Source: Psammoneis japonica (lineage: Eukaryota). From it: DNA of 64,000 nt. The first letter of the stretch is position 1; every line of letters starts with the position of its first letter. The position numbers and the translations under genes were made by a program. Positions 1-41,719 of the stretch are shown in pieces. The notes beneath the pieces are model-generated. The model was not told the DNA's origin. It searched no databases and worked only from the letters and a program-made list of their open reading frames with translations. The DNA is taken from the NCBI GenBank assembly GCA_008632985.1, contig QPGO01000120.1, positions 1-64,000 of the forward strand, written 5' to 3'.

Positions 1-1092
1 GCTCTTGAAAAGAGTCAGTCACCAACAACGGCAACAATGACATCCCTGCCTTGCAGGGAAAGTGTCTTGACAAAGACTCAGATGATGAAGATGACAAAAG
101 GAAGAAAACAATCAGCACACGCAAGGCTTCATTCGGTCGCTCCGACATGACACAGCGGGCCAGTCCGTCGAATCCAAGGTGGCTCATGTTGGTCCCCACC
201 AGCCTGATGTGATCAAGCACAGCATTGCACACCAAGCCACTTCACAAGTCCAGCCCAACCAGCAACTGCTCCTTGCCACCGCTTGGTGTTTTGACCATGG
301 ACAATGTGAATTTCTCCACAATCCAGAGATCAAATGTGGAGACATTGTTGACACTGTCAATGTTCGTTGCATGATTCTGTTTAAAGAATGACTCCAATGT
401 GCAATTGGGGAGGCAAGTGCAGTGTGCATTTTCATGTGCACATTCACAATTGTGAGTCATGAGTGTTGTGCACGTCATTTGCACCACAGTCGTGGGTGGA
501 CACAAAGGACAGATCGATCACACACACAGAGTTGACAGGATGTCAAGAGTTGCAAATGCAGTTGATCAATGACACTGACAGACAAGATGTCAATGCAAAT
601 CAAGTGTGGACAATCTGTTGTCATGATCAGATTCTCCAAGAGGCCTTCAGTTTGCAGAAGCAGTGCCAAGGCTTCAGGCCATTGAGGACCCCTTCAGAGA
701 ATCCCAAAACAGCAGAGTGAAATCTAATCTCATGATTTCTGCTTTTTGTGATTTGTTCCACTTTCATGCACACTTGTTCTTTGAGCACAGCGCGTGCTGG
801 CATTTGAAGCATCAAGTCATTTGGGTGGCTCTGGCACTTGTGGTGGTTGGAGCCTTTGCACTGCCACAGGCGGTGATGGCTGGAGTCTTGCACCAAACAA
901 CAGCCAAAGCAGCCAGCATCAAGTTGAGGGCAACACTTGCACTTCAAAGCACTTGAAACTTTGAGCTCAGAGGCTGTTTTGTTCAGGGTCATCCAAAGTG
1001 CCATCAGCCTGCAGCACATTGTCAACCCTGTTGAAAGAGTTGTCCGGCTTGCAAAGCTTGATCACAATGTGAGATTTTTCCTTTCACTCATT
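1..1092. mobile_element. Highly degenerate repeat/TE relic (TpA- and CpG-depleted)
   Basis: Almost no TA and few CG dinucleotides, no credible ORF. 1025-1080 (ccctgttgaaagagttgtc...gcaaagcttgat) resembles 10870-10920, so it is repeat-derived. Confidence 0.5.
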
Positions 1093-1097
1093 GGCAC

Positions 1098-1373
1098 TGA
1101 CAGGATTTGAACAGGATTTAGGTGCGCGCGAAGTATCGCGCGCTGTTTAGTTTACCGTGCACAGTTTTGTGTGCTTTAGTTCCGCGCGTTCACGCGCGAT
1201 GTAGTTTGCTTTCGAGCCACAAGGCTCACAAGAACAACAACAGTAGCCCGATTGTGCCGACTTACACGTCTTTCGGCTCCTGCAACGGTCTCTGAGCGGA
1301 GACTCATCTGCCATTTAGACAGCAGTAAGGAGTCATTGTTTGAATTCTTGCCATTTGCCTTCATTTTCTGTCA
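1098..1373 (+). repeat. 5' LTR of copia element
   Basis: Direct repeat of 7929-8204 with 13 mismatches and no indels; TG...CA termini. Confidence 0.97.
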
Positions 1374-2314
1374 GATTAACAGTCTTGCTCATTGTCAACC
1401 CATTGAGCAACCGCCATCGTCGTCGTTGATTTACCAACGACGCTATTTCAATTCTACGTGGACCTCCGTGTGTGTTCTACATACATCGGCAAGTCTACGC
1501 GCATTCAATACCAGGGCATCGGCAGGAAGTTAACGTCACCGTCAAGTCTCCTTACCGCTGGATATCTGGATTGATTGTACTGCCTTTGATCGCTGAAGAC
1601 TTGTGTTCAACGGTCATATCCAAGTCTATCCTTGATCAACATCCCTTGACACACCTGTTCCTCGGTTGACGGTCAAGAACCCTGCATGTTCAAGGATCTT
1701 AGTCGCTGAAGACACATGCATGTGTGTCACATCTTCACGGCCAAGAACCTTTATCCACTCTTCGGACTGCGGTTTTGCTGCCACTCTACAAGCACACCGA
1801 GTCCATTGCACCTGATCTACCCCGGACTGCTGGTGCTCTGCAGTTCCACTGGGTCCACGAGGACGACTGTGAGAGCAGGCAGCCGTGATTGCAGCCTGCG
1901 TTGGGGCGAGGGTGCTTTCCCGCGTTTGTTCGTTCGTCCACAGCGCCTGACGCCTGCGTCAACTGGCCAGCCTGATCGGGAAATCCAACCGACATAAAAC
2001 AAGAACGGTTCGGGGGTCTTGTCCACCTCTAGTCAGCTCACCTGCAGGGGTTTACAACCCGCTGCTCCGCTCGCAAGCAACCCAAAGCGCCACCAGCTGC
2101 GGGTTCGGACGTGCCGGCACAACTCTGCGGACCGGACAGGAAGTTTAGCACTTGACAACGAACGGGATGACAAACCCCGGCGACTTCTGATCTCAAGACA
2201 GTTCAAGATTTCAAGTCAAGTCCATTTCAAGTCAAGTCTGTTCTCACCCAAGTTTCGAGTCTACCTTCGCTTCCCAACCAGAATTGATTGTCCTGACACC
2301 ACTTTTTGTCTGCC

Positions 2315-5300
2315 ATGGTTCTCACTCGTCAGCAACAAACCGATGGTTTCGAGCACGTGGTTGGAACCGTGCTTGCCCAAGGTGCTGGGAGTCCTCTTCG
2401 TTTGGCTTTGGCCCAAGACGGCACGGACTCGCGTCAGGAACTGTTCACGTTCATGCCGTCCCAAATCGACTCGCTTGAGTGCGACAACGGCGCTAATGCA
2501 ATCCCTTTGCCCCGTGGTCATAAGAACATGTTAGCAGCACTGGTCAGTCTGTGCATTGTCAAAGCACACAAAGGTCTTGACGTTGCCAACGACTCCTCTT
2601 TGTTCACGCATGACGAGTTCCTTGCCACCGCCTCAGCCCCGACTGCATGTCTTCTGTGTCCATCGGCAGCTCACCCCTTGCACCTCCACATGTCACCAAC
2701 CCGACCAAGGCACGCGACCCGGTGCGGGACTTCAAGCGAGGCATCAAGCGTGATCCCACCGCTTTACGGCTCTCAAATCCGACAAGCAGTGGCACACTTG
2801 GCACACCTCACTTGTGGCACAAGCCCGTGCCCAAGACGTCGAGTGCATTCTAGACTCGTCGTACAAACCGACCAGCCCCGAAGACAAACTGCTCTTTGCT
2901 GAACAGCAAAAGTGCATGTTCGCCGTCTTCGAACGCATCCTTCTCACCGACAAGGGCAAGGCTCTCATTCGCGAAAATGTGGGGTCTTCTGACGCACAGA
3001 CCGTCTGCCGCTCCTTGTCTGAGTGCGCGCTTGCCTCCACCCGCGCATCTGTCGAGTCCTCCACCCTGCTCACATGCCTCACCACCGCGCGTCTTGGTGA
3101 TGGCACTTGGAAAGGTCCGACCCACGGGTTCATCCTTCATTGGCAAGATCAGTTGCGCAAGTGCGAGGCACTCATCCCGGCCAGTGACCACTTCTCTGAA
3201 GGACAGAAGCGCGTCATGCTCGAGAATGCCGTGCACCCTGTCGAGGAACTCCGTGCTGTCAAGAACCAAGCTGATCAGCATCGTACGCAGAGCGGCAAGA
3301 GCCTCACATGCGATCAATGCTGTGGCTTGCTCCTCTCCGCGGCAGCTCAGTGCGACAGCACGTTTCAACCCAAGACGACACCTCGAGCTCCCCGACGCGC
3401 CACATGCGCACACGACGTCTGCTCCGAGGAACCGTCCGACGATGTGTTCTACGACATTGACAGTGACGTTGATGTCCTTCAAGCCAATGCTGCCTGCACC
3501 CGCGGTCCCAGCCTCACCGGTGTCCAATGGAGACGTCTCCCTCCCGACCACCAACGGCTTTGGGATTCGTTGCCCGATTCCTCCAGGGCGATCATCCTTG
3601 AGCATTCTCGTCCACCTCCCCGCAACCCGCGAGCCAGCAACTGCCATGAGTCTGTTACGGCCAACCTTCATGACCAACGCCTTGGGAGTGACGGTGATGT
3701 CAACTTGTCCAACACGACTCCCGCTGACTCTGGTGACTCCGCTCCACATGTGGACGCCACTTCGGATAATCCCATCCTGGCGCACCTCACCAAGCGCAAG
3801 CCACTGCCACCCGGTGATCTGCAACGTCTGTTGTCTCCCAACCAAGCTCCCAATGCCAGTCGACCGGGGCCATCCGCCGCTTCCTCTACCCCGCCAGCTT
3901 CTGCAGATGACACAGAACTTAACGGCCGCACTTGCCACCGCGTTAACAACCACAATGTCATTTGCTCTGCCTCTGCTCATCGCTCCACACGCACTGGCGC
4001 TCTAGTCGATCGTGGGGCCAACGGCGGCATTGCTGGCGACGACGTTCGCGTCATTGCACGCACCTCTCGCCAAGTCGACGTTCAGGGCATTGACGATCAT
4101 CAATTGGTGGACATCCCCATTGTCACCGCTGGTGCCGTATTGAGACCCAGCGTGGTCCCGTCATCGCCATCCTCCATCAGTGCGCATGCACGGGAAAGGG
4201 CAAGACCATCCATTCCTGCGGCCAGCTCGAATGGTACAAACAGGATGTCAACGATCGCTCTGTCAAGGTGCCCAACGGCTTGCAACGCATTGCCACTCCT
4301 GATGGCTATGTCATCCCCATTGACATCAAGGCTGGCCTGCCTTGTGTTGCCATGCGACCTTACACTGACGCCGAATGGGACACCCTGCCCCATGTCATCC
4401 TCACCGGTGATGACACATGGGACCCTTCCGTCCTCGATCACTCTGTCACTGACGACGACCAGTGGTGCGACGCGATCTCTGACCTGCAGGACGATCCCAC
4501 TGCCAACCCATTTGACGAATGCGGCAACTGCCGTCATCGTGTCGTTGTCAACGAGACCATCATGTCCGCTTCCTTGTCTGCCGATCACGCGTCCGCCCTC
4601 GATGATCACCTCATTCCGAATGACGACGTGTTCTACGAGTGTCATCTGCATGCGCTTGGCCCCCAGGGCGATGACGTTCCACCTCCGGAGCGCACTGTAC
4701 AGCCCAAGGACCCCCCCTTCGAGTCTCTTCGGCCTCACTTTGGCTTCCCACCTGCCGATGCGGTCCGTCGTACTTTTGACTGCACCACGCAGTGCGCCCG
4801 CATGCCCGCTGGTGCACACCTTCGCAAGGCCCACAAATCACCCAACCCCGCCCTCAATGTGCACCGCCGCAACGAGCCTGTCGCCACTGACACCGTTCAT
4901 GCCGACACCCCGGCCGTCGACTCTGGTTGCACCAGCGCCCAACTGTTTGTTGGCACCGAGTCTGCCGTCACTGACGTCTACGGCACTAAGATGGACAAAG
5001 AGTTTGTCAACACACTCAAGGATCAGATCCGTGAACGTGGTGCCCCATCCAAACTCATTGGCGATCGTGCTCAAGTTGAGATCAGCAACAAAGTGCTCGG
5101 GATCCTGCGCGCCCTCTTCCTCTCTAGATGGCAAAGTGAGCCTCACCAGCAACACCAAAACTTTGCCGAGCATCGACACCAGACCGTGAAGCGCATGGCG
5201 AACACTGTCATGGATCGTTTTGGTTCACCCGCCCATGCATGGCTGCTGGCGCTCATGTGCGTGTGCTTCACACTCAACCATGCAGCGTCCCCACGTCTCC

Positions 5301-7981
5301 ACTGGCGCACGCCCCTCGAGACTCTCACTGGCTCCACCCCGGACATCAGCCCATTGCTTCGCTTTCACTGGTGGGAACCCGTGCACTTCCACCTCGATGA
5401 CTCCGATTGGCCGTCCGAATCCCGTGAGTTGCGTGGACGCTTCGTTGGCATTGCTGAGCATGTCGGCCACCAGATGACCTTCAAGATTCTCTCTGACGAG
5501 ACTCAGAAGATCCTCTGCCGGTCCAACGTCCGCTCCGCTACCCCCGATCCTGCCGTTCGAAACCTGCGTCTTGATCCTCCTGATGGGGAGCCACCTGAAC
5601 CCATCATCAAATCTCGCCATGACGACAACCCCGTCGACTCTCCTGATGGGGAGATCAGGACACCCAAGATGCCAGTTTTCGATCCGCAAGACATCATTGG
5701 ACGCACCTTCCTCATGCAGCCACAAGAGGACGGACAACGCCACAGAGCTCGCATCGTCAAGGCCGTCGAAGACCACGAATGGAAAGTGAACGGCAATCCC
5801 GAGCTCACTAAGTTCGTCTGCTCTGTCAACAATGACGAATACGAGGAAGTCCTTGCCTGCAATGACATCATGAATCACATTGAGCAAGAAGACGAAGACA
5901 CCACTGTTTGGAAATTTCGACGCATCGTGTCACACGAAGGACCTCTGAAGCCTCACGACCCAACCTGGAAAGGCTCCAGCTACAACATCATGCTTGAATG
6001 GGAAAGTGGGGAGATCACGTCCGAGCCTCTTGCCATCATCGCCAAGGACGACCCCGTCACCTGTGCCATCTATGCACGAGAGAACGGACTCCTCGACACG
6101 GATGGCTGGAAGCGGTTCCGCACCATCGCGAGGCGCCAAAAGAAGCCATTTCGCATGGCCAACCAAGCCAAGCTTCGCTCCTTCCGCACTGCACCTCGCT
6201 ACAAGCATGGACACGAAGTTCCCCGGAACTACAAACACGCCATGTCACTAGACGAACGCAACAGCAACCGCAAGTGGGGAGACGCAACTAATCTCGAGAT
6301 GGACCAACTCGACGAATACGAAGTCTTCCATGACTGCGGGCCCTTCAAGTCTTCCACTCCTCCTGCGGGACACAAGAAGATCCGAGTGCACCCAGTGTGC
6401 GACGTGAAACACGACGGTCGCCACAAGGCACGACTCGTAGCCGACGGGCACCTCACGGACGTACCTGTCGACAGTGTCCACTCCAGAGCAGTCTCCCTCC
6501 GTGGCCTTCGGCTGATGATTTTCCTGGCCGAACTCAACGAGTTGGAGACATGGGCCACCGACATTGGCAATGCCTGCCTTGAAGCCACCACCAAGGAGAA
6601 GCTTTACATTGCAGCTGGACCCGAGTTCAGCAAACTCGAAGGACACATCCTTGTCATCCACAAGGCACTGCATGGACTTCGCAGCTCCGGTCTCCGCTGG
6701 CACGAGCGCTTCGCCGACTGCCTGCGAGCTGAAGGCTTCTTCCCCTGCCGTGCCGAACCCGACATTTGGATGCGCAGGAACGGCGACCACTGTGAACACA
6801 TTGCCGTTTATGTGGATGACCTCGCCATTGCCATGAAGGACCCTCAATCTTTCGTCGACACTCTCACGGAAAAGCACAAGTTCAAGCTCAAGGGTGCGGG
6901 ACCCATTGAGTTCCATCTGGGTTGCGACTTTTCCCGGGAACCCGACGGAACCTTGTGCCTGTCTCCGCGCAAGTACATCGAGCGCATGGTCGACAGCTGT
7001 TCCCGACTGTTTGGGGAGAAACCTGCCACCAACGCCCTGTCACCTCTGGAGAAGGGTGACCACCCCGAACTGGACACTTCCGAACTGCTGGGACCCGATG
7101 GCATTCACAAGTTCCAGTCTCTTGTTGGTTCACTCCAATGGGCAGTGTCCCTTGGTCGAATTGACATTACCACGGCCGTCATGTCACTCTCCAGCTTCCG
7201 AGCTGCACCCCATCAAGGCCACTTGGATCGTGCCAAACGCGTCTGTGGGTGCCTCTCCAAGATGCGACACGGTGCTCTCCGCGTTCGCACGGAAGAGCCC
7301 GACCACTCGGATCTCCCTGCTCCGGCCTGTGAATGGATGCATTCCGTGTGTGGTGAAGCAGAAGAGATTGTCCCGAAGGACGCTCCACCGCCCCTTGGCA
7401 AGTTCGTCACTGCCACCCACTGCGTCGATGCAAACTTGTGCCATTGCATGCTCACCGGACGCTCTGTCATGGGAATGCTCCACTTCCTCAACAAATTCCC
7501 GGCTGATTGGTTCTCTAGGAAACAAGCCACCGTGGAGACTGCGACCTGCGGGTCTGAATTTGTTGCCGCAAGGACTTGTGTTGAGCAGATTATCGACCTG
7601 CGCATCACCCTGCGCTGCCTTGGCGTCCCGATCCGTAACGTCAGTTACATGTTCGGTGACAACAAGTCGGTTGTAGACAGTGCCACCATCCCGCACTCCA
7701 AGTTACACAAGCGACACACCGCACTGTCGTTCCACCGTGTGCGTGAGGCAATTGCCTCTGGTTGCCTTGAGTTCCACTTCATCGAAGGCTCCCGCAACCC
7801 TGCTGACATTCTCAGCAAGCATTGGGGTCACTCCCAAATCTGGGACCTTCTCCGCCCCCTCATGTTCTGGAACTTCATTCCATCCGAAGTCGAATCTGTT
7901 TCTGTGGCTCCTCAAGCAAACTGGGGAGTGACAGGATTTGAACAGGATTTAGGTGCGCGCGAAGTGTCGCGCGCTGTTTAG
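2315..7981 (+). pseudogene. copia gag-pol polyprotein, frameshifted and Tyr-depleted
   Basis: Protease LVDRGANGG, integrase (TDTV...SEPHQQHQNFAE), RT (KARLVADG, YVDD), RNase H (NPADILSK). Frameshifts near 2640, 2810 and 4140. Confidence 0.93.
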
Positions 7982-8204
7982 TTTGCCGTGCACAGTTTTG
8001 TGTGCTTTAGTTCCGCGCGTTCACGCGCGATGCAGTTTGCTTTCGAGCCACAAGGCTCACAAGAATAACAACAGTAGCCCGATTGTACCGACTTGCACGT
8101 CTTTCGGCTCCTGTGGCGGTCTCTGAGCGGAGACTCATCTGCTGTTTGGACAGCAGCAAGGAGTCATTGTTTGAATTCTTGCCATTTGCCTTCATTTTCT
8201 GTCA
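7929..8204 (+). repeat. 3' LTR of copia element
   Basis: Direct repeat of 1098-1373, preceded by the PPT and followed by TSD GGCAC. Confidence 0.97.
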
Positions 8205-10930
8205 GGCACCATGGTGTGGGCTGCTTTTCAGAGCCCGGAAAAAGTCAAAAAGAGGCATTCAAAGGTTGGGAGTGCAGCTGGCATTGCAAGCTGTTGAAAG
8301 CTTGGTCCAAAAGTTCCCGCAAAAAAGCTGAAAAATGTTGTGAGGTGCAGAAAATTCCAGCATTGCTGAAGAAAAAGAAGATGCAAGCCCAAGCTGCTTT
8401 GAGGCTGTTGGCAGCTGTTGACAGGCATTGCAGACAACAAAGTGGAAAGACAGCTCCAAAGCCTCCATGCAGCTGGGCTCATGTTGCCCTTTTGGCCCAG
8501 TGAAAGGCATCCAAGTGTGAGGAGGTCTCTGATGTTTCTTGGTCAAGAGCATGCAGCAGTGAGTTGGCTGGTGCTGGTGTGTCCCAAAAGGGTGCCCGCC
8601 TGGGCTTGGTGCTCCCCCAGCACAGGCCCATCCATGTGAGCAGTGTTTCTGGCAGAGGAAGAGAGCAGCAGCAGGGTCAGCAGTGCTGGAATGAGGAGGT
8701 GTTGAGTGGTCAAGCTTCTGACAAGCTTTGGCACACAAAAGAGAACCTTTAAAAGGTCTTTGCAGTGGCCTTGGGCAACAAGCCAGTCACAGAGCTGTGT
8801 GATGATCATGGAGAAATTGCTGAGATTTGCACTTTGAGCCCAGCATTGGCAAAGGCTGCCACACACAACACCCTGAAGGTTGGCTGAAGTTGGCAGAGCA
8901 CAGAGGTTGATGTCTTTCTGGCAGGTGCTTGTCTCCATTTGGCTGGCTGCTCCAACTGGCTTGAAAAGATCCAAGATGATTGCTTTGTCCTTCAAAGGGA
9001 AGTCACCACCCACACCTCAATGAGCCAACATCACCAAGCTCCCATTTGCTCTGTCTTGTTCACAAACTCCATCACATGGAGCTCAGCTGAACCAGTCTCA
9101 GCTGGGGGTGGGTGGAAAGCAGGTGGGATGCAGGGCTGTGCTCTTTGTTCTTGAGGTGCAGTTCAAAGTTCTGATGAAGCATTTCAAGCATGTGGAGCCA
9201 AATGTTGTGCACCTCATCTGTTGGGAGGCAAAGGCTGAGGTGACTTGACTCAAAACTTGTGGCTGAGACTTGGCAAAGATCCAGGCTTGGGGGATGGCCA
9301 GAGCCTTGTGCACAGTGCGCAGGATGTGGGAAGTCATGTTGCAGGTGCTGTTGCATTTTGGGGCACTCACACTGCCCCACAGCACATTTGCCTGTGTTGC
9401 CTCAAGGTGGCTTGTCTGGGTCAGGTGTGACAAAGCCATGAACTTGCTGGCAGTGCTCAGATGTCTCTTGGGTTGCTGCTGCAATGGGACAAATGGCTGC
9501 TTGGGGATGTGCGCCAGTCTCAACTGCAGAGCTGCTTCAGCAGCCCTTTTTTGCCCTGTGCCATGCCCCGTCCACCTTGGTTTGGTCTGCCTTTTTTTGG
9601 TTCACAGGTCTGGGCTTCAGCTTTTTGCAAGCTTGGCATGGGGTTTTGGGAGGTTGTGCTTTTGCTTCCCTTTTCTCTTTTTTTGCTTGGTTTTTGTGGT
9701 GAGTCTTTTGCAGATGTTGCCAATTTTGGGGCTCCCCAACAACACCGTTGGAGCTTTTTTTTTGTCTTGTTCAAAAGTTGTTGCTTGGCACATTTGGGCC
9801 CATCCTGTTCCAAGGCTGCACACACACACTGTCACACACAGTGGGACATGGTGCAACAAGTTTCTTGCATTCAAGGGTGGCAGTGGCAGCATGTGCAGCC
9901 TTGAGCTGTTTGCACGTTCTCTGCTTTGCAACGGCCTTGGCATTTGTCAGCTTCTGCTGCTCTTTCCAGCGCAGCAAGCTCTGGAGACCAAATGTGACAG
10001 AGCCTCAAAAAATTCCTCATTTTTTGGATCATGGCTGTTTCCATCTGCTTTTTGTTGCCTTGCATGCAGGTCACTGCACTGACTTCAAGCTGTGATGTCA
10101 ACAGAGTCCCTGGGAAAGTTTTGGAATCTTTGTGACAAGGAATCTTTCTGGCACTCCTTTGCAGTCAAGCTGGTGTGCAATTTCTTGGATGGCTTTGTTG
10201 TCAGCAATGCCAAGGCAGTCATTGTGCAGCATGGCAGCCAGCTCCCAGTCTGGCCAGGCACTTGGCAAGGAACACCCCTCCAAGGCATTTTGTGGCAATG
10301 TCACGTTGGCACAGCATCATTTTCTTTTTATTTTTAATGCAAAAAGTGCAGTGCTTGCAACAACAAATGCTTCAAGTCTCAGCTTCTTTGTGGCCTCCAA
10401 CTTTCACATGGCTGTTCAATGCACATGGTTCCCTGCTTCAAATTGGAAGCTGCCAATTGCCTTGTTGATGTTGGCAGCAAACTTTTTTGCTTTCTCACGT
10501 GGTCCCAAAGATTGTTGCTGAGTTGAACTTGACATTGATTCTGACAAGCTTGGTGATGAGGGGATGGTCTGCTGGGCCCGGGAATGCCAACCTGTGTGCT
10601 CAGATGTTGCCCCAACTTTGCAACCATGTGCAAGCAGCAAGTGATCCTGCAACACCCTGGAAAGCTGGAAGCTGTGCCTTGATTTGCTTGCGGCATGGTG
10701 ACAATTTGTCCAACTCACATTTTTCATCTGGTGTGCTGATGCTGATGGTTCAGCACCACATGCAAGGCCAAATTTGAGTGGGCGCACAGGCTGTTGCCAT
10801 CATCAAAGTTCACTGCACTGTTTTGGGGGTTGTCCAATGTGCAACCAGCATGCAGGAGCATGACAGCAGCCCTGTTAAAAGAGTTGTCTGGTGTGCAAAG
10901 CTTGATGATGTGAGCTTTTGCTTTCCTGGC
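8205..10930 (-). mobile_element. Ancient retroelement relic, probably Penelope-like
   Basis: ORF 8543-9013 (ILDL...TCQKDINL...GVVCGSLCQCW...WLVAQGH) recalls the C-terminal part of Penelope-like RTs with Y->C changes. Near-total loss of TA and CG. 10160-10215 is an inverted homolog of 25395-25450. Confidence 0.5.
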
Positions 10931-11219
10931 ATTGTCAAGTAGTGCGACAACACGGATGAAGCTTCCGCCTTGCCGTTGGTGTGGACCAGGGAACATCCCA
11001 AATATGTGTTGGCGGAAGAGTTCCCAGTGGAAAATATTGACTGAGCAAGGACCATCTCACAATAGACGACTATGACATACTGAAATAGATCTCATGACCA
11101 TGTCTGGTGCATGAAATTGGACCAAAGAAGATTGGCGTAACAAGCAAACTACCAGCATTCCACTGCCTAATTGACCGGAGAACTTAAACAAGAAACAGAG
11201 AAGGCAGCCCCACGCTGCG

Positions 11220-13539: not shown

Positions 13540-15570
13540 TGATAAAGAAGCCTTGGTGATCAACACTCTGATCTGAGGAGCTGCCTCCCGAACTTTTGTG
13601 AAGAATGGCTTTGAAAGTGCACTTGACGTTGGGCACACTGGTGCTTTCCCAGAGGGGTCCAGTTTCCTTGCACAATTGTTTTGGCAAGGTTGATGAGGAT
13701 GGTCACCTTTGTGAGCAACAGATGGCCGCAGGCATCATGGCAAGTTTCTCTCTCGTCTCATCTCTGGCCTGCCCCCCCNNNNNNNNNNNNNNNNNNNNNN
13801 NNNNNNNNNNNNNNNNNNNNNNNNNNNNNNNNNNNNNNNNNNNNNNNNNNNNNNNNNNNNNNNGCAAGTGCCACACTGATGCCAGCCATCTCTTTGGTGT
13901 GCTTTTCCAATGATGAGGGCACAAATTCACAAATCATCAGCGGCGAAAATGGTGCTCGTCTCTGTGATGCTTGTTTCAAAAATGATTGTTTTGATGCCAC
14001 CAGCAATCCCTGTCCTGTGACTCATGTGTGTGACTTGTGGCATTGTGGCGAGAAAGTCAAGTGCTGTGTTGAATTGCAGTTGTGCATCTTGTGATGCAGT
14101 GTCATCTTTTGATGTTCTGGTGCAAGGTGTTGACATTCTGTTGTTCATGTCATTGGCACTTTGTGAGAGACATGGATTGAGCTGTGGATTGTGCAGTCAA
14201 CCTTGGCAACCAGTGCTGCTGACCAATCTGGGGTGCATCAGGAACCACTTCCCATGGATTGTGCACAATGGCTGGACTTGGAACTGGACAAAACACCTGG
14301 ACTGACAAGTCAAAAGGCCACCTTTTGGGAAGGCAGGCAAATGAACAATTTCCCCCCAAACAGCTTTCAGACAACACCTGCATGCAAAACTCCACACATG
14401 TCCAGGTTGTGGGTCCCTCTGCATTTGCTGGGTCCTGCGATGGAAGCACGCAGCAAGTGGGAATGAACATGATGAATGAACTCTGGGGCGTGCCCTTGAC
14501 GTGCATCTCAACATGGGGAAAATCCAAGAGGGAGGCCATGCAGTGGAGTTGAGGGATGCAATCAAAGTGAAACAGGATGACTGTCTCAAATGCGCTGCTC
14601 CTGTGCAGGCCAGCTGGCCATTTTTGAGAGTCCTGGCACTGCTCAGTCTCTCCCGGTGGAGTTTCCTGTTCAGGGACCATCAGTGGAGATGGGTGAATGG
14701 ATGCTTGTTCTGACTCACAAGACATTGAATGGTTTGAAAGTTTGGAAAGATGATGACAAATGCTGGGCTGGATCAACATTTGGCGGGGGGCTAACACCAG
14801 CAAACAAGAAGTTGAAAACATGCCGTTGCTTCCAACTGCAAAGAAAACCTTCTCCAGAGAAATGCAATGAAAACAATGTCATGGATGCAACCAAGATCCT
14901 TGCACAATTTGTAAAGGGTGTCACAGAAGTTCTGGATCATGAGGATCAAGAGAGAGCCAATGGCCAAATCGCGCCATCTGATTTGTTGCGGTGCAAGGAG
15001 AACTCAGACATGTGATTGCGAGCAACAAAAAAACATTCCTGTTGAGGCTCAAGGAACAGTTTTTGACTGATGGCAAAGTTGCCTCACCCATGCCAGCTGG
15101 CAGCAATCTGTCAAGGTTCAACCTGATGAAAGTCCACACACCCACAAACTGGATGGAGTTGATGGTGTCACTTTTCCCACGCTGCTGCTGCTTGCCATGA
15201 AGGCAGCCACCACTCAGTGTGGCCTCAACGACAGAGCAAAGATGGTTTCAAGCTCTTGTCAGCACCTGTGGCAATCCCAAGCCTGAGGAAGATCTGGCTG
15301 ATCAATGGGCCAGAGAGGCCCACAGAGACATGTCCGGTCTTCTTTGACCCATGGTTTGCGAGTCTGCAGATCAAAGATGACCACCCGCCTCCAAAGCCAA
15401 CCCGCTCTTTTTGCTCTTCAAAAGAATTTGCAAAAAGGAAAAGATTGCTTGCTCCCATGATTGTCAATGACATGAACTGCTTTTTGGTTTCCCAAACCAA
15501 AAACAACCGGACAAGTGCCAGCCTTCCAACAGCGCAGTTTGTCATTGCTTTTTGGCAACATCCTTTTTTT
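13540..15570. mobile_element. Degenerate repeat relic spanning an assembly gap
   Basis: TpA/CpG-depleted, CA/TG-rich, only Cys/His-rich spurious ORFs; family not identifiable. Confidence 0.45.
13779..13863. other. Assembly gap (N run)
   Basis: 85 Ns. Confidence 0.99.
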
Positions 15571-20736: not shown

Positions 20737-21136
20737 CTTGAAACGTTAAAATTTTGACACGTGCACGAAATTTCACAACGGGAACTGGCGCGAGTAGGAT
20801 CTACGAACGCTGTCGTATGATTTCAACGCGCGCTTTTTGATTGGCTGGCATTATTTCTTGTTCAAAATTTCAAATATTGCAACGTGGCAACTTTGACGTC
20901 ATCTTCAACGTGATTGGTTGTTTCGGTTCGCATTTTCGTGAAAATTTTAAAACCTAATCATTGCGGAATAAAAATATAAAATTGAAAAGTAATTTGACAG
21001 AGGCGCTTGTGCTCTGTCGAACCTTTGAACGGCGCGCGAACGCGCACACTCGCGCTTTTCTTGCTTGCCGGCACTGAACTCTCCGCCAACCGATTTTCTT
21101 CACACACTCACTGCCCCAGATGCCCTCTCTAGTAGC

Positions 21137-22190
21137 TAGTGGTTATCCGTACAAATGCCATAATGTCATATATGGCATTTCTTTCTACGCCGGAACTGGT
21201 GCTGATTCTGCGCGCAATGCCACATAAAATGCCACATTTTGCACGTGAAAAAAGCGTGCCGGCGATTGATTCGTGGCCCCCGACTGCGACGAACTCATTT
21301 CTTGTGCATTCAGAAGCATTGGAATGCCATTTCCAGTCGGTTTTCCCTTGTGTGTTTCATGCGCCCCCATGCCCAGCGGTGTTTGACGCTTTGCTGTCAA
21401 CGGAAAAACAGCTGGGGTGGTCATCCGCACCCGCACAAATGCCATGTTTGCCCTGAATGTGGCATGAATGTGGCATTTTGATCCCAAATGCCACCACAAT
21501 TTTTCCAATGCTCCCCAGCTGTTTTTCCCTTTGACAGCAAAGCGTTGAACACTGCTGGGCATGGGGGCGCATGAAGTGCATGAGGGAAAACCGACTGGAG
21601 ACGCGTTCCAGCCCCAGGTGGGACTCCGTGTGACATTGGGCCCGTAGAATTCTACGTGCGAGCTCCGTAGTACGAGAATTTAATCAATGGACACATTTGT
21701 CTTCAACATCAAATAAACGGCCAAGTTTGTGGTGCAATTGTGCCTCTTGCCACTCGACGTTTTTGCAACTTCGCCTGCCCTGCGCGATTCTTAAGACATT
21801 AAAGAATCGCGCTGTAACAAAAAATGTCAAAAGTTGTTGGACGGATCGCTCAATGAGTGCACCGTAAAATGACACAAAATGTCGAAAAAATCACGTAGAA
21901 ATCTACGTGCGCGACATACGACGAGACTCAAAAAACTGTCGATGTCACAGTTCAGTGGTACGAGGTCCCACCTAGACCTGGAACACGTCTGGAAACGGCA
22001 CTCCAGGGCTTCTGAGTGCACAAGAAATGAGTTCGTCGCAGTCGGGGCGGGCCACGAATCAATCGCTGGTGCACTTTTTTCACGCGCAAAATGTGGCATT
22101 TTGCATGGCATCATGCAGAATCAGCACCAGTTCCGGCACAGAAGAAATGCCACACATGGCATCATGGCATTTGCGTGGGGACAACCACTG
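21137..22190. mobile_element. Non-autonomous foldback/TIR DNA element carrying a nested MITE
   Basis: Long inverted arms (TAGTGGTTATCCGTAC... versus ...GACAACCACTG); related to the MITE at 54236-54571. Confidence 0.85.
21600..21989. mobile_element. MITE (GACGCGTTCCAG TIR family), nested insertion
   Basis: TIRs GACGCGTTCCAG..AGGTGGGAC / GTCCCACCT..CTGGAACACGTC. TGGA is duplicated at both flanks and the host arm is reconstituted on removal. Confidence 0.88.
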
Positions 22191-22191
22191 G

Positions 22192-23155
22192 CAGTGTCCA
22201 GTCCACTGGGTTTTTTCCTCAATTGAGGCTGCAAAAAGCACCTCAATTGAGGCAGTCAAAACACACTGTGGACAGGGGGCAACATGCACCATTTTGGCAA
22301 ATGACACGACAGACAATGATGTCAATCTCATTGTGCAAAGCAGTCGCTGCAAGAACAATGAAGCCATTTCAATGCTCTCAACACCTTGCTCTGCATGCTC
22401 AATGTGGTCGCCTGTGCCCCACAAACATGTGATGCGAAAATGGCCCATCACATTCACAAAAAGCCCTTTGACACACTTTCAAAGACCGCATCGTCTTGCA
22501 CTTGGTGTGCTCCAATGCACCACGTGCTTGTTGTTGTTGACCGTTGCACTCTGATGACACAAATGGACACAAGGATTGGTGGTCTTGGTCGTTTGTCGCG
22601 ACAGCAATTCTGATGCTGTGATCACAAAAAATGCTCCTTTTGAAAGCTCTGCACACAATGCAGCAAGCTTCTCTTGCATGGAGAAGACACACTGCTGCGC
22701 ATGCAGAGTGCATTCACCATCGTTGCAGAGCTGAATTTTTGAGGTGCCATTTTTTGTGTTTTGTGCTTGAAGCCTCCTTTTCTTGACCATCGCTGCAATC
22801 TTGAGTCTCAGACTGCCATGACAAGGTTGCCCTTGTTGTGTTTAAAGGTGGATCGTTGAGAGAGTCCCAGAGTTTGTAAAACGGCGGTCGCATCATTGTC
22901 AAAGTGCGCCAAAATTCGCACATTTTTGGCATGCGCGTGTTTGCATGCCAACAAGGTGAAGAAGAAAATGTGTGGTCGAGTGCGAATGAAGAGCCGAGTT
23001 GTTGCCCCAAGAGGTTTTAAAGCGCATGCAGAACAACACTCTAATGGCTGTCACTTGAGGACTACGACGGTTTTAGCGATTTGGTGAGGGGGGTCGAAAA
23101 ACCACCTCAATTGAGGTTTTTACCTCAATTGAGGTGCTTGGTGGACCAGACACTA
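22192..23155. mobile_element. Non-autonomous TIR element with subterminal CCTCAATTGAGG palindromes
   Basis: Ends AGTGTCCAGTCCAC / GTGGACCAGACACT; two CCTCAATTGAGG copies near each end. Confidence 0.7.
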
Positions 23156-24899: not shown

Positions 24900-26270
24900 C
24901 GATCACGAGCAAGTGCGCCATCACTCTCTGTCCCTAACTTTTGAAAATGTCTCCAAACCATTCATTGCTTTGACAAGCTCCTCGATGTTGGCAGAGCACC
25001 TGTCTCTCCCAGGTGTGTCCAAAGCTCGAGTGGGGGACAATGCCAGTTGTTTCGATTCCAGCAAAGCACAGACAATCTGACACATTTTATTGTGAGACAT
25101 GTTTGAGCATTCTAGTTCCATGTGTGCATTGCTCGACTCTTTCGTCCATTTTTTTCTGAATTTGAGCTCCACTTGAGAATTGTCCTTGTCATCTTGTGAA
25201 CATGAGCTCCAAATGATCCCATCTTTAAGAACCTTCTTTGCAATGTTGCTGATTGAGAGTCTCGCCATCTCTCATCTCCCCCCCCCCCCCCGGCAATGGC
25301 CGATGCTCAAAATGGACTGTGAGGATGGACTGAGAGCTCTTGTTCATGTGACAAATGCCGCCTTTGCCACTGAGCATGAAGTTTTGAGATTTGATGACTG
25401 CCTTGGCATTGCTGATGACAAAGTTGTCCAAGAAATTGAGAGCAGATTGACTTTGCACCGCAGTGCCAGAGAGAGAGCCCTTGTCTCAAAGATCCCCGGA
25501 CTTAGAAGAACAGCTGGCAGTGCCAACAAGCAAGCAAGAAAGCTCACATTGTGGCCAAGCTTTGCACACTGGGCAACTCTTTTAGCGGGGTTGATGATGT
25601 GGTGCAGGCTGGGACAATCCCAAAAACAGCTTTTGCACTTCTGGTTTCAAGGGCTCACTGTGACATGGCAACTTTGGCATGATGGCTGCTTTGGCTGACA
25701 TTCAGTGAAACAAAAGAGTCTCCAACCACCGCGTGCATCAGCAGCACAAAGGTTCTAACTGCCACAAGTGCCAGCAGTCCAAAAGCTCCAAATGCTGGCA
25801 GTGCAACAAAGGCTCCCAACAGGAATCATTGGGGCTCTCTGAGTCATTGTGTGGAAATTGTGCAGAACAACACCATGAGCACCAAGAACAACTGTCATCA
25901 GTCTGTCTGTCCATCCACACCTGAGTGTCAACTTCTTGGAAAATCAATTGAAATGTTGTCTGATCAAAGGCATTGCTCTTCGCCATCTGAGTCATCAAAT
26001 TGCCTTTGATCAGATGACATTTCAGTGGAGTTTCCTGCAAAGTTGTCAGCTCCAGCCACTGTCCAGTGTGACATCATGTGCGTTTCCACACAATTTTGCA
26101 TTTTTCCTCTTGCAAGTGCCAACTGTGATTGATGCAACATTTTTGAATGATCACTCAAAAGATCCACTTCAGTCGCGGTGCACAAAGAAAGCATCAGCCG
26201 ATTGCATGCTGACAGAAGCCTGTTGTGTTCCATGCACTGAAAGGTGTCAAGAGATTTGCTTGACTGTCGG
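24900..26270. mobile_element. Degenerate repeat relic, partly homologous to the 8205-10930 relic
   Basis: TpA/CpG-depleted; gactgccttggcattgctga..caagaaattg shared (inverted) with about 10160-10215. Confidence 0.5.
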
Positions 26271-27714: not shown

Positions 27715-28109
27715 GACGCGTTCCAGCCCTAGGTGGGAGCTCGTAGTACTGACGTGTGACACAAATAATTTTTATCATCCGTGGTATGTTTTGCACGTAC
27801 ATTTCTACGTGTGATATTTAAAAAAATTGTCCAGACTCGCTGTTTTGCGAAGCCCCAGACGTTTTATATAACAAATTTATAGAAACAATAATGCGCCAGT
27901 TACATTCTTCAATGTCTGAAGAATGTAACTGGCTAAGTAAAAAATGATGTACTTCAATCATGTGCGAGTTTGTGCGTTCGCAAAATTGCCTCATTTTCTG
28001 TTGGCGATCATTGACATTTCAATTACCGTATAATTTTACTCCGGAGCTCGCACGTAGAAGTCTACGGGCCCAATGTCACACGGATTCCCACCTACGTCTG
28101 GAACGCGTC
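27715..28109. mobile_element. MITE (GACGCGTTCCAG TIR family), inverted relative to 21600-21989
   Basis: TIRs GACGCGTTCCAG / CTGGAACGCGTC with CAG on both flanks. 28037-28109 is the near reverse complement of 21600-21672. Confidence 0.88.
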
Positions 28110-28183
28110 CAGCGCCGGATTTGATGGCGGCTCCCGGCTCCCTCCATTCTGTTCACTTCCTTTCACAAAGCATCACTTTAGAC

Positions 28184-29043
28184 ATGGATTTAGACCAAGC
28201 ATTGGAAACAAGCGTGTTGGATCAAAGGGGCAGCACAGAAGATGTTCGACGTGCACTTTTGCACGGCGCCGAAGCATGTTTGTGAACGGCACGGGTGATG
28301 ATGTTCCAGCCCCCATCCTTTTTTTTGTTGTTGTTCCGCGTGGCACAACCGATCGCGATGCAAAAGCTCAACTCTTGCTGGATGCCGGAGCACGTGTGAT
28401 GGATCAGCCACATGGACTGGCGCCCTTGCACGGTGCAGCGGTCAATGACAAAGCTGACCGCAATGGTTTGACGCCCTTGCACATGGCTTCAATGCATGGT
28501 CATGATGATTTGTGTTTGTTTCTGCTGCAAAATGGTGCCGATGTAGATTTGAAGTCAACCACCTTGGGTGCAACAGCTCTTCATTGTGCTTCAAGTGCCA
28601 GAAGCGAAAACGCAGCACGAGTTCTCTTGGAGGATGGAGGAGTGGGAGTCAATGAGATTGACAGAAAGGGGCTTGCGCCTTTGCATCATGCAGCAGGCAT
28701 GTCAGGTGGTGAAAGCATTGCGAGACTCCTGTTGGTTCACGGTGCTGACATGGGTGCCGCAGATGTAGATGGAGAAACACCATTGGACGATGCTTTCGAG
28801 CGTGGCCATCAAGCTGCAGTCTCGGTGTTGATGGAAGCGCGTGGGCAACAACTTTTGAAACAAGACAGCATTCATCCAGCTCTCTGGGCACATGTCTTGG
28901 CCAAAGTGGGAGGACGTGGCAGTGCAGACATGTCCAGAATGGGCGTTGTTTGCTCCTTGCTTTGCGAAAAGCCGGATCTGTCAAGCTGCAGGAACACCGG
29001 AAGAAAAAGAAAGCGACCTGATCGTTTTGCACCAGGGATGTGA
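28184..29043 (+). pseudogene. Ankyrin-repeat protein pseudogene
   Basis: GLTPLHMA, GATALHCA, GETPLD repeats; frameshift near 28275; no Tyr in 255 aa; ends in RKRKRP. Confidence 0.8.
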
Positions 29044-29518
29044 AACAAGTGCTGCAGCTTTGTTTTACAAAAACAAAAAACTTTGATTGCACACGTGACA
29101 TGTTTGCTGCGGCAGACATTCAAACCAGCTGTGCTTCTGCCATGCTGTTTGTTTTTTTGTTTGCTGCTTGCTCAATTTGCTCGACAGCATCCAACCACCA
29201 CACGCAAAACAGAGACCTCAAGGTGTGCCTGCCCTCGAAAACTTTGTGAGTTTCTTGGCTGGCACAGAAGAGGTTTCAGCATGCTGGGTTTTTCTGGTTT
29301 CTGGCAAGAAAATGACGTTGGGCCTTGTGTGGCTTCCGGTGTGATCGGCTTTGTCAGCCAATCGACAACAGTCGTTTTGCACTTTGTTCATTTTGCCAAT
29401 CCCATTGGTGTAAATGCACTCACCAGTCAAGGACGTGAGCCCTGTTTGCAGTGTGATTACACCTGGCAGCAAGTTTGTCCTCTCTTTACAGCGCATGATT
29501 TGGCAAGATTGTCGTCGC

Positions 29519-30425
29519 TCAGTCGACAATTTCGTTTGGAAAGTGTTCCGCCAACAAATGTTCATGACAGTCCGTGCTCCACACCAAGGTCAAGGCGGGT
29601 GCTGCATCCGTGTTGTCGCACTTGACAGTGCCAGTCATTGTCTTTTCATCCAGCATGCCTTGAAAAATCGAGTCACCACCATCGTGCACGATTTTGACCT
29701 GGTCGTCAACATCAATCAAAAAGGACCAAATTGGCATGGGCAGATGACGACTCTGATCGGGAAGAAGCAGCTTTGGTTCCACAACATTGCCGTCCAACTT
29801 TTCCATTTGAACAACAACCAGCAGTGGAGGACACGGTGCATCTCCATCACAGGCATCATCATCTGGGCAGCCATGCCAACGGCCTTGCATCTCGATGATT
29901 GTCTCTGGATCTCCTGTCACTGCTTTTTCCATGGCAAACTGAATCTCACGAGGAATGATCATCTTCTTGTCTGGCGGTTTGCAATGACCACAATCCAGAG
30001 AAATGCTTCTGTGCCATGTTGCTTCTACATTCAGGTCATTTTATTTCCAGCCACATCATCAAGCTTTCCAATGTGCACACCATTGATGGCATCAAAAAAG
30101 AAAGATGAATCTCGTTGGCATCTGGATCAAACCTTGTTGCCATGGCGGGGATGAATTGACTCCCTGGTCCAGACTGTGTGTGAAGACTTGTCCGAAAATG
30201 GGAGAGATGCTTGAAAAATGAGGTGCAACTCTAAAGTGAAAGTGCCTTTCCAGTGTCCCACAACAGGCTCCCATTCGTCCTCATGATCAGTGTCCTGCTG
30301 CAGGCTTCAGCCTTCTTGAAAGGAGCAGAAATCGCACAATGACTCTTTGTCAACACCACCCTGAGGATTGTTCCATGCACGATTGTGAGAGCAGCAGTGA
30401 CAACAAAGGCTCCCGCTTTCTTCAT
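29519..30425 (-). pseudogene. Mutated duplicate of the gene at 35568-36494
   Basis: Collinear homology (CDGDAPCPPLLVV.QMEKLDGNVVEPKL) with frameshifts and Y->C/H changes. Confidence 0.92.
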
Positions 30426-31799
30426 GGTGTTGGTCAGCAAAGACATTCTTCAGAACAACCAAGTGACTCCAACAAACAACAAGAGAGATGCCTCAAAAGA
30501 TCTGGTGGCTGCTTCTCTCCATGTGAATGCATTGCTGCACCGATGTGACAGTTGGGAATTCCATTGAACAGGAGAACTTGCTCAGGCAGGAATGAAAGCT
30601 GAAGGTGCATTGGTGCCTTCAGAGTGCGCGCCGTTGCATTGTGTCACAGCTGATGAAGCAAAAAGAAGTGACTGTCTCTCACAAAGCCAACCACCCCTCC
30701 CACAATGCCATCCGCTCAACTCTCAAGTCCCTGGGATTGACACTGTGATGAATGAGTTGAGTCTCGAGTCAAGTCACATTCGCGGTTTGTGGTTTGTGAC
30801 ATTTTGAGTTCACTTTGCCTTCAATCTTTGGTCATCAACACACAAAAGGAAGGGGCCAGCACATGCCATTGCGCAGAGTGCCCCAGCTGCTGCTGCTGCC
30901 ACAAGAAATGGCATTCCCATGGCAAGAAAACAGCTTGCATGCTCAACAATTTCGGCACTGCCCTTGACCTTCCCTGTCAATGTCTGACTGCTGCAGTGCC
31001 AGTTGTCATTGCCCTGGGAATCAATGGAGCCCTCCCATGAATCAAGACCAGCACACTGTCTGGCACTGAAGAAATGTTGCAAGAGATGCTGCTGGCATCA
31101 CTTCTGGCTCCAAAAGGATCTCTCTATGCCAGAAGTCTCTCCAGCTGCTGCAAGCCACACCAGCTCCAAACTTGATGCATGCACAGTTGGGAGCCATCTG
31201 CTTCTGCACCAACTGCACTGCTGTGGCACCTGCTTCTGTCTCTGGCCACTCTTCATCAAGCTGCTGCAATGTCAAAAGCACAGCCCTTTCACCCCATCCC
31301 TGAGAAAGCAAGAGCAGCTGCACACAAGAGAGCTGCAAACCAATCATCATCTGGGACTTGGGAGCAAGTGTTCCAATCTCACATTGTGCTGCCAACTTTG
31401 TTGGACCCCTTGAGAAGCTGGCTGCAATGCCAAAGCTCCAACAAATCACCAAGGGGCAGGAGCCCCTCAGCAACAATGTCAGTGCCTTCACTTCAGCCAA
31501 TTGTTGCACCCACCTTCAAGCAATCTTCAATCAAAAGAAGTGTCAAAATTTGCCAGTGGTGCAGGTGCTCACCACCATCATTGCAGAATGTGCCACATGC
31601 ATGGTCATGTCCATTTCATGCACAATGATGTTGCATGTGCTGCAATTCATTGACCAGATCTTGCCAACACTGTGCTCTGGTCTTTTGCTGTCATCATTCT
31701 GTTGCCTTGCCCAATGCAGTGCCCGACCCCTCCTCCATTGGATTCAGCTCCCAGGATGTCTTCAAAAAGACTCATTGGCTGCATTTTTGATTCAAGGAT

Positions 31800-35175: not shown

Positions 35176-35567
35176 ATCGTCTTTTCGTCAATTGCTACTC
35201 TATTTGCTCGACACATCCGTCCACCACATGCAGATCCTTTTGTCTCCATTCCTGGGAGACCTCGAGTTGTGCCTGGCCACGAGGGCTTCGTGTATTCTTT
35301 GCTGGCACAAAAGAGGTTTTAGCAGGCGGGTTTTCTGGTGAGAAAATGAAGTTGGGCCTTGTGTGGCCTCCCGTAGCATGGTCGGGTTCGCCAACCAATC
35401 AACAATAGTTCTTCGAGTCGTTGTGTACATTATTAATGTCGTCAATCCTGTTGGCGAAAATGCATTTGCCAGTCAAGGAAGTGAGCTGTACCATTTACAA
35501 CATGGTTGCACGTAGTAAGTTTGACCTCTATTATTTACAGTGTATGATGCGGCTAGATTGTCGTTGC

Positions 35568-36494: not shown

Positions 36495-37153
36495 GGTGTA
36501 TTCTTCAGAATAACTCCAACAGAACAAGAAGTGAGACGCCCAGAAAAGATCTGGCGGCTGTTTCTGTCCAAGTGAAAGCGTCGACGGTTGGGAATTCCAT
36601 TGAACAGTAGAACCCTGCTCAGGCAGGAATGAAAGGTGAAGGTGTATTCGGTATTGCGGCTATTATAAGGGCCCTCTATCGTGTATCGTGTTGCGTTGTG
36701 TCTGGCTGTGACAATGAAGCGAAAAGAAGTGGCGGGACTCAAGGCATGACTCGATTCCCCCGACTGTCTCTGAAACCGTAACAATCTTTCAAAAAGATAC
36801 CAAAAATTTTCGAAATTCATCAAAAATCCTATTTTGAACAGAAAATTCAAAATTCATAGTCATTGACACCCACGACTGAAGGAGACGCGGCAACAACAAT
36901 CACAACAATCACAAGGGATCAGCTCAGCTAAACTATTGCATCAAAACATACGATCTCTTTACCAGCTTCAGCACCCTTGAATGAGGAGGAGATGAAGGTG
37001 CAATTCTTGTTTGTTTCAAGTTGTTTGCTAGTGTGGGCGAGCGCAGCAACAGAAGACACCGCTCACACAAATCATCAATAGGGAGCATCCGCCGAAGAAG
37101 AAGAAGAAGAAGAAGAAGAAAAGGCTCATATTAGCTTCATACCGGCTCCTGGA

Positions 37154-41689: not shown

Positions 41690-41719
41690 TTTTGATCAAA
41701 CAGTGGCGTGTCATTATAA

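Follow-up and report, generated by a model that had tools for sequence, protein, structure and literature searches.

Probable post-insertion TpA hypermutation of a Copia retrotransposon in Psammoneis japonica

A Ty1/Copia-type long terminal repeat (LTR) retrotransposon occupies positions 1098 to 8204 of a 64,000-nucleotide stretch of Psammoneis japonica DNA (hereafter the window: GenBank assembly GCA_008632985.1, contig QPGO01000120.1, positions 1 to 64,000 of the forward strand), and its two LTRs differ almost exclusively at TpA dinucleotides. We propose, with a probability of about 0.78, that this Copia element has undergone a post-insertion, DNA-level and regionally targeted hypermutation of TpA to TpG or CpA. 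After insertion, a local and context-specific process would have turned TpA into TpG or CpA on either strand, hitting each LTR independently, so that the LTR pair would serve as its record. The process would be aimed at a region of the chromosome and not at a particular sequence, and would spare neighbouring host genes.

Results

The two LTRs differ at TpA

The features that define the insertion and its terminal repeats are as follows.

1093-1097, no strand: left copy of the target-site duplication, GGCAC (read directly; the same five bases follow the 3' LTR)
1098-1373, plus strand: 5' LTR, 276 b, TG..CA ends, 10 TpA and 20 CpG (read directly)
1135-1326, no strand: region holding all 13 LTR differences, numbered along the 5' LTR (3' LTR counterparts lie at +6831)
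7929-8204, plus strand: 3' LTR, 276 b, TG..CA ends, 6 TpA and 20 CpG (read directly)
8205-8209, no strand: right copy of the target-site duplication, GGCAC (read directly)

Realignment of 1098-1373 with 7929-8204 reproduced the 13 mismatches in 276 b, with no gaps, on which the initial annotation of this DNA had been built; all 13 are transitions. The eight single TA versus TG/CA sites that it listed could all be located. At six of them (1135, 1154, 1202, 1264, 1317 and 1326, in 5' LTR coordinates) the 5' LTR has TA and the 3' LTR has TG/CA, and at the other two (1235 and 1256) it is the 3' LTR that has TA. Four further mismatches form, as described, two dinucleotide sites with CA in the 5' LTR and TG in the 3' LTR (1283-1284 and 1312-1313), and the remaining one is the separate A/G difference, which we place at 1285, adjoining the first of these two sites. 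Four of the TpA dinucleotides (10 in the 5' LTR, 6 in the 3' LTR) are common to both repeats.

Of the transitions that could occur, changes between TA and CA/TG make up 22.5% in the 5' LTR and 21% in the 3' LTR. Against this baseline, the probability of finding at least 8 of 13 differences in the TA class is 0.0028, and that of finding at least 12 of 13, with both CA/TG sites counted as TA-derived, is 1.7e-7. The claim that nearly all the differences lie at TpA, in both LTRs, is borne out (12 of 13 with the CA/TG sites counted), and the pattern goes beyond chance. An explanation that needs no special process would invoke genome-wide TpA avoidance, or GC-biased gene conversion, together with chance clustering; TpA is mildly low both in the host genes of the window (observed/expected ratio 0.47-0.62) and in relatives of the element (median 0.69). 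We give this explanation a negligible chance in view of the two probabilities above, of a second, Gypsy-type LTR pair in which 15 of 16 substitutions are of the TA class, and of islands in the window in which TpA falls to 0.00-0.08. Moreover, GC-biased conversion is not expected to act on TpA only.

Reverse transcription makes both LTRs of an insertion from a single template, and they match exactly at integration. The intact GGCAC duplication ties both LTRs to a single insertion, so the 13 differences arose after insertion, in agreement with the annotation. It had also warned that LTR dating would overestimate the age of the element. Indeed, removal of the TpA class reduces the differences from 13 (4.7%) to 1 (0.36%), an inflation of about 13-fold.

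The two CA/TG sites had been described as consistent with single TA dinucleotides that mutated in opposite ways in the two LTRs, with a CG ancestor as the alternative. With CG as the ancestor, both LTRs must share the same 2 of 22 CpGs as targets (P = 1/231 = 0.004), and single-hit CpG differences are absent from the Copia LTR pair. With TA as the ancestor, a model with 14-17 ancestral TA sites, in which one LTR takes 4-7 hits and its partner 8-11, predicts 2.3-4.5 doubly hit sites, and the observed overlap has a probability of 0.52-0.83. TA ancestors are thus much the better reading of both sites.

Within the LTR pair, hits show little further structure. In the first (5') half of the 5' LTR none of six TA was hit, compared with four of eight elsewhere, which is not significant (P 0.085). 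Strand bias between the two Copia LTRs is not significant either (P 0.22), and we found no clustering of same-strand hits. The annotation had further described the CpGs as untouched. This holds for the LTR pair, where 20 of 20 are identical; it fails inside the element, where 7 of 51 single-step departures from conserved sequence are CpG to CpA or TpG.

Direction of change

The LTR alignment on its own gives no direction: TA may be old or new. Direction can be read from the coding region of the element, which contains the following features.

1374-7928, plus strand: internal region; TpA observed/expected 0.23, CpG 0.92, GC 0.57
2315-4142, plus strand: N-terminal (gag/protease-like) part of the polyprotein in two frames, 2315-2626 and 2664-4142 (located by tblastn of the intact relative P0003)
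4139-7891, plus strand: pol part, the third reading segment (open reading frame (ORF) 4094-7981, protein P0002), with 66% identity to P0003
6362-6997, plus strand: Copia-type reverse transcriptase, Pfam RVT_2, E 2.8e-24 (converted from residues 757-968 of P0002)
7923-7928, plus strand: purine run GGGGAG adjoining the 3' LTR (read directly), a putative polypurine tract

The pol protein P0002 was aligned with the best 60 of 120 listed homologs, giving 587 columns that are conserved in at least 80% of homologs, and pol departs from the consensus at 66 of them. The departures are concentrated at tyrosine. At 29 columns where Tyr is conserved by the same 80% threshold, pol retains Tyr at 8 and has switched to Cys at 11, to His at 8 and to Phe at 2, so that 19 of the 29 conserved tyrosines have become Cys or His (TGY or CAY codons). 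When each of the 60 homologs was treated alike, none had more than one Tyr-to-Cys/His change (mean 0.17). Changes of His or Cys to Tyr are absent from pol.

At the nucleotide level, a single-base step accounts for 51 of the 66 departures, namely 16 TA>TG, 10 TA>CA, 1 ambiguous, 6 CG>CA, 1 CG>TG, 2 other A:T>G:C and 15 transversions. No step runs from CA/TG to TA. All five first-position A>G changes at codons other than Tyr are preceded by the T of the previous codon. There is no stop in 1295 codons of pol, and its TpA observed/expected ratio is 0.19, compared with a median of 0.69 (range 0.15-1.23) in 49 metagenomic relatives (locus L050, whose match covers only 165 b, was left out of this baseline).

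Some of these relatives carry the same scar. Among 18 of the 50 loci, hand-picked for Tyr counts, the two TA-poorest in-frame relatives have Cys or His at 15 of 18 (L030) and 12 of 16 (L035) conserved Tyr positions; TA-normal relatives retain Tyr (for example 28 of 28 in L003). Four loci that are frameshifted, with many stops in single-frame translation (L004, L014, L036 and L044), were excluded from the counts. L030 (2-1615) and L035 (3-1487) are environmental Copia relatives with 62-63% identity to pol and TpA ratios of 0.26 and 0.15, respectively. As they share the scar, traces of the TpA process extend to environmental assemblies.

Further family members, in contigs of a public run, point the same way. 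Among 40 listed variants of 451, other copies have TA where the Copia copy has TG/CA in 13, and the reverse occurs in none. CG elsewhere faces TG/CA in the Copia copy in 12 and the reverse holds in 3, with 6 transitions in other contexts and 6 transversions; these context classes were assigned per single site and are approximate where neighbouring positions vary (for example 3074-3076).

Taken together, the loss of 19 of 29 tyrosines with no reverse change, the low probability of a CG ancestor and the 13 to 0 split among variants support TA as the old state and TG/CA as the derived one, as had been proposed; at the LTR sites themselves we infer this direction. The opposite direction would be that of a process like repeat-induced point (RIP) mutation, with cytosine deamination turning ancestral CpA/TpG into TpA and the CA/TG sites descending from CpG. 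The undirected LTR alignment and the location of the differences in repeated DNA would suit such a process, and RIP prefers CpA according to the abstract of PMC2621366. Yet RIP would not convert conserved Tyr to Cys and His with no change the other way, it creates TAA and TAG where pol has no stop at all, and it would leave neither TpA depleted to 0.19-0.23 against 0.69 in relatives nor two CA/TG sites whose CG ancestry has a probability of 0.004. We regard it as very improbable, and the Gypsy element described next adds a further argument.

A Gypsy element as a replicate within the window

41098-41690 and 47122-47708: LTRs of a Gypsy-type element

This second retrotransposon contains RVT_1, RNase H and integrase zinc domains (Pfam). 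Its LTR pair differs by 16 substitutions and two 3-b gaps. At fifteen of the substitutions the 5' LTR has TA where the 3' LTR has CA/TG (A>G at 8, T>C at 7); at the sixteenth, CG in the former faces CA in the latter. The pair shares 17 TA and 31 CpG. No clear target duplication was identified at the Gypsy LTRs.

The hits are split 15:0, all in the 3' LTR (P 6e-5), so that the mutation process did not treat alike two identical sequences that lie 6 kb from each other. The same asymmetry extends into the body of the element. Over 41527-47098, Tyr is 3.5% and Cys 1.2% before 43 kb, and Tyr is 0.3-1.0% and Cys 2.8-3.7% thereafter; the TpA observed/expected ratio per kb falls from 0.68-0.70 to 0.12-0.14 at the same point. 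A sharp edge of the mutated domain thus lies inside the Gypsy element near 43 kb. The 15:0 split and this boundary together indicate targeting by place and not by homology, unlike RIP, which mutates both copies of a duplicate where here one of two identical LTRs is untouched.

Mobile DNA is mutated and gene-like ORFs are spared

The window as a whole has the same domain structure. Host-like ORFs (a BTB, three SET-domain, a 2OG oxygenase and a monooxygenase ORF) have TpA ratios of 0.47-0.62 and CpG ratios of about 1. Recognisable transposon ORFs have TpA of 0.10-0.23 and CpG of 0.68-0.97. Older islands have TpA of 0.00-0.08, CpG of 0.05-0.3 and CA+TG of 1.7-1.9. Within the 64 kb, therefore, mobile and repeat DNA is TpA-poor and gene-like ORFs are spared. 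The Copia element itself is nested in one of the older islands, which forms both its flanks.

1-1092, no strand: left flank, older island; TpA 0.03, CpG 0.27-0.28, CA/TG excess
8210-11000, no strand: right flank, the same older island; TpA 0.00-0.08 and CpG 0.11-0.25 per kb

In ORFs of at least 110 aa in these flanks (one ORF in 1..1092, the others in 8210..11000) no Pfam family was found, and among 86 ORFs of TA-poor flanks and islands Pfam returned only a Lipase_3 ORF. Islands with TpA of 0.00-0.09 lie at 1-1097, 8205-11000, 14001-15000, 22001-23000, 25001-26000, 29001-34000, 53001-54000 and 55001-56000. Three stretches among them combine low TpA with CpG of about 0.6 (22001-23000, 29001-30000 and 55001-56000); in most others CpG is 0.05-0.3.

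A direct comparison is possible where a stretch has two paralogous copies, one in an island and one gene-like. Three such pairs have lost TA, island copy versus gene-like copy, at ratios of 34:3, 19:0 and 8:0, and CpG at ratios of 35:8, 21:2 and 11:0. The stretches involved are 29212-30611 and 35256-36648; 49986-51289 and 60550-61630 (inverted); and 21135-21339 and 21986-22192 (inverted). A further listed ratio is 8:0 for TA and 5:2 for CpG, the losses being to CA/TG, and one of the gene-like copies carries a SET-domain ORF.

CpG depletion in the older islands raises the question of order. CpG changed in none of 40 site-copies in the Copia LTRs, compared with 12 hits in 28 TpA site-copies, and in the Gypsy 3' LTR CpG changed at 1 of 32 sites compared with 15 of 32 for TpA. 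TA loss comes first and CpG loss later, because CpG is nearly intact in the LTRs and depleted in the older islands, and the TpA process is far faster than CpG decay.

The host affiliation suggested by the window is diatom-related. The kynurenine-monooxygenase-like ORF at 38237-39694 has as its named relatives Helicotheca (47%), Seminavis (44%) and Amphora, followed by Cyanobacteria; its top match is an unnamed protein (80%). The closest named relatives of this one gene are diatoms, which speaks against Bigelowiella as the host. An ankyrin-repeat ORF (28015-29043; Ank_2, E 6e-24) lies in TA-poor DNA and has a TpA ratio of 0.19, Tyr of 0.9% and His of 5.2%; it may be a host-like gene caught in the mutated domain. 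A run of 85 N at 13779-13863 marks an assembly gap or a masked stretch. No deaminase family was found among the window ORFs scanned with Pfam.

A dead element

The direct repeats with TG..CA ends, flanked on both sides by the 5-bp GGCAC target duplication, mark a Ty1/Copia-type LTR insertion, and the RVT_2 domain (PF07727) in pol identifies a Copia-type reverse transcriptase. RVT_2 is also the sole Pfam family in the intact relative P0003 (1859 aa, a single ORF), which has about 300 residues C-terminal of it, an arrangement that would fit the Copia order. Pfam (E up to 5) detected no integrase family either in the Copia copy or in L001, an intact relative, and a PDB sequence search likewise gave none; the gag/protease-like part at 2315..4142 contains no Pfam family.

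A database search returned 1779 homologs of the polyprotein, the best with 71% identity; most come from metagenomes of marine and fresh waters and consist of one ORF of about 1850-1900 residues. In the Copia copy the polyprotein falls into three reading segments (2315-2626, 2664-4142 and 4139-7891), which implies at least two frame shifts. Public-run contigs have one extra base at 2626/2627 and one at 4138 relative to the Copia copy. Self-comparison found no further copies of the element in the window, and an exact-pattern scan with a 45-b invariant LTR stretch gave 0 matches in viral_contigs and 0 in genome_contigs. The Copia element is a dead Ty1/Copia-type LTR retrotransposon, nested in an older repeat island.

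Because TAA and TAG have been erased, the element is crossed by long ORFs: 41 stop-to-stop ORFs of at least 80 aa lie in all six frames over 1000-8300. A second, unrelated Copia-type remnant is present at 58181-60091 (RVT_2, E 1e-9; TpA 0.10, Tyr 0.5%, Cys 3.6%).

Hits on both strands and a probable origin in DNA

In pol, sense-strand A>G (16 TA>TG) and T>C (10 TA>CA) are both frequent and randomly interleaved (14 runs compared with 13.6 expected), which upholds the view that both strands were hit. This bears on a rival in which the changes predate the insertion: ADAR-like A-to-I editing of RNA before reverse transcription, or inheritance from a mutated master copy, with the LTR differences introduced by gene conversion or by mosaic assembly. 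ADAR prefers a 5' U, as cited in the main text of a preprint on Bigelowiella natans (bioRxiv 10.64898/2026.01.13.699255). Also in keeping with this rival are the large number of polymorphic copies in the family, LTR bodies that lie beyond the reach of unique junction contigs, and a TA loss that is heavier in the internal region than in the LTRs. RNA editing would, however, give sense-strand A>G only, and T>C and A>G occur at 10 versus 16 in pol and at 7 versus 8 in the Gypsy 3' LTR. It also predicts identical LTRs, and the Copia LTRs differ. The annotation had taken RNA editing to be excluded, and neither of these two expectations fits the data. The same TA loss affects flanks in which no retroelement is recognisable and island copies of host-like genes, and in B. 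natans, as that preprint's main text reports, the changes arise de novo in DNA. A master copy lacking 19 of its 29 conserved tyrosines would hardly be expected to transpose. We consider a pre-insertion origin improbable and continue with hypermutation of the inserted DNA.

Several observations weigh against that explanation. The A/G difference at 1285 lies outside the TpA rule, and the 7 CpG>CpA/TpG and 15 transversion departures in the internal region are likewise not of the TA class. The Copia family is abundant (14,706 contig pieces in one public run), only 66% of the words sampled from the stretch occur in the best run, and the unique junction contigs (depth 63-71) extend only about 26-28 b into each LTR, so that the assembled LTRs could be mosaics of several copies. 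LTR positions account for 0 of the 40 variants listed of 451. TA loss is greater internally (about 66-72%) than in the LTRs (12 hits in 28 site-copies); the internal excess may be partly inherited, or the rate may vary along the element. Lastly, TpA is palindromic, so A>G after T is indistinguishable from T>C before A, which bears on the step of adenine deamination.

Terminal repeats of relatives served as controls. They were present in seven metagenome loci, five of which have 100% identical overlaps of 103-127 b that are probably assembly ends. The terminal repeats of L010 have 4 differences, none of the TA class. In L001, a TA-normal relative, the LTR pair (1-537 and 7493-8029) has 20 differences, 19 of them transitions, with 2 in the TA class and 13 in other contexts; this pattern may reflect a mosaic contig or another mutational bias.

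Flank preference and chemistry

An exploratory analysis of flanking bases pooled the single-hit sites of both LTR pairs (22 hits). TA>TG occurred with a pyrimidine next in 9 cases versus 3, and TA>CA with a purine next in 8 versus 2 (Fisher P 0.03). Y-TA-R sites were the least hit (2 of 20 site-copies), and on the strand that carries A>G the motif is T-A-Y in 19 of 23. The Tyr codons of pol lean toward T-A-Y, though not significantly. The T-A-Y rule is tentative. Such a preference would resemble the substrate of the tRNA wobble-adenosine deaminase.

By analogy, the chemistry would most likely be that of a deaminase that prefers a 5' T and converts adenine to hypoxanthine in DNA. To judge from the domain structure of the window, which is the sole basis for this step, the targeting signal would probably be silent chromatin or an RNA guide. 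An unlikely variant keeps the same regional process but has the thymine of TpA modified, for example by TET/JBP-type oxidation, giving T>C; oxidised thymine mispairs with G. Every TA>TG is a TA>CA on the other strand, and the T-A-Y motif of A>G changes is equivalent to an R-T-A motif of T>C changes, so the data do not decide which base was hit. The preprint, in its main text, favours adenine deamination by analogy with ADAT2, and does so without an assay (bioRxiv 10.64898/2026.01.13.699255).

Discussion

The closest known system is that of B. natans. The preprint by Mettrop et al. (bioRxiv 10.64898/2026.01.13.699255) describes, in its main text, mutation-accumulation lines in which two regions of integrated viral DNA acquired 231 changes, 230 of them A>G or T>C. 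The authors report that the GC-biased changes are all at TpA, at a rate about 1000-fold over background and in some lines only, and they propose an ADAT2-like adenine deaminase. The likenesses to the present case, as far as that text goes, are extensive. In the integrated nucleocytoplasmic large DNA virus (NCLDV) and virophage regions of B. natans, as here, A:T-to-G:C transitions occur at TpA and yield TpG or CpA according to strand. They are confined to foreign or mobile DNA while the rest of the genome is normal, and leave TpA depletion with an excess of CpA+TpG as a long-term trace. TpA-poor coding sequences in B. natans are enriched for reverse transcriptase and DDE domains, which recalls the retrotransposon targets seen here. 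Copy number is not a requirement in either case: the NCLDV there is single-copy, and here one of two identical LTRs is spared.

There are also differences. The host is diatom-related and not a chlorarachniophyte, which places it in a different supergroup, and the targets are LTR retrotransposons and island copies of host-like genes. Our evidence is historical, resting on LTR pairs and Tyr codons rather than on mutation-accumulation lines, the older islands are CpG-poor as well, and the T-A-Y flank preference, if tentative, is new. The words diatom, LTR, retrotransposon and CpG have 0 occurrences in the text of the preprint (its supplements lie outside this count), and a literature search returned no description of TpA hypermutation in diatoms. 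What we describe is the known B. natans signature in a second lineage, on retrotransposons, with new features in its speed far above CpG decay, its positional targeting within one element and a possible T-A-Y rule.

RIP in Neurospora and other ascomycetes likewise kills transposons by hypermutating their DNA with transitions in a specific context, and a dinucleotide scar remains. Its direction is the reverse: RIP changes C:G to T:A at CpA and enriches TpA, as the abstract of PMC2621366 states. It also hits both duplicate copies and makes stops, whereas here one LTR or paralog is spared and TAA/TAG are erased.

Animal retroelements are edited by ADAR, A-to-I in RNA, and by APOBEC, C-to-U in cDNA. 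Such editing produces deaminase-type transition clusters in LTR retrotransposons, and ADAR shares the 5' U/T preference. These enzymes work on a single strand of an element that has yet to integrate, and its LTRs come out identical; in the window, hits fall on either strand and LTR pairs have diverged. DNA without a recognisable retroelement is affected too, and the direction of APOBEC editing is opposite.

Methylation-driven CpG decay has the same end products, TpG and CpA, and the old islands have CpG of only 0.05-0.3. Diatom transposons are CpG-methylated. Such decay, however, cannot make the TA changes and is much slower in this window.

The signature has practical consequences. Erasure of TAA and TAG leaves long spurious ORFs in all frames, which mislead gene finders, and mutated transposon proteins escape domain searches. 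LTR pairs, for their part, are a built-in before-and-after record, and what they record is post-integration, affects both strands and is unequal on identical LTRs, which points to regional targeting.

A broader interpretation is possible, though we hold it to be doubtful. In it, the diatom lineage would defend its genome with a natural editor that changes A to G in DNA, an adenine deaminase with a T-A-Y preference. Directed by chromatin domains and not by homology, this editor would erase TpA, stops and Tyr codons from transposons soon after insertion; shared by a stramenopile and a rhizarian, it would be old and widespread in the stramenopile, alveolate and rhizarian (SAR) group, as the mirror image of RIP. 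An enzyme behind the process, should one be identified, would amount to a naturally occurring editor of adenine (or thymine) in DNA. And if TpA hypermutation is true of P. japonica, it extends to a second, unrelated eukaryotic lineage, and what has been the observation of a single preprint becomes a candidate general defence.

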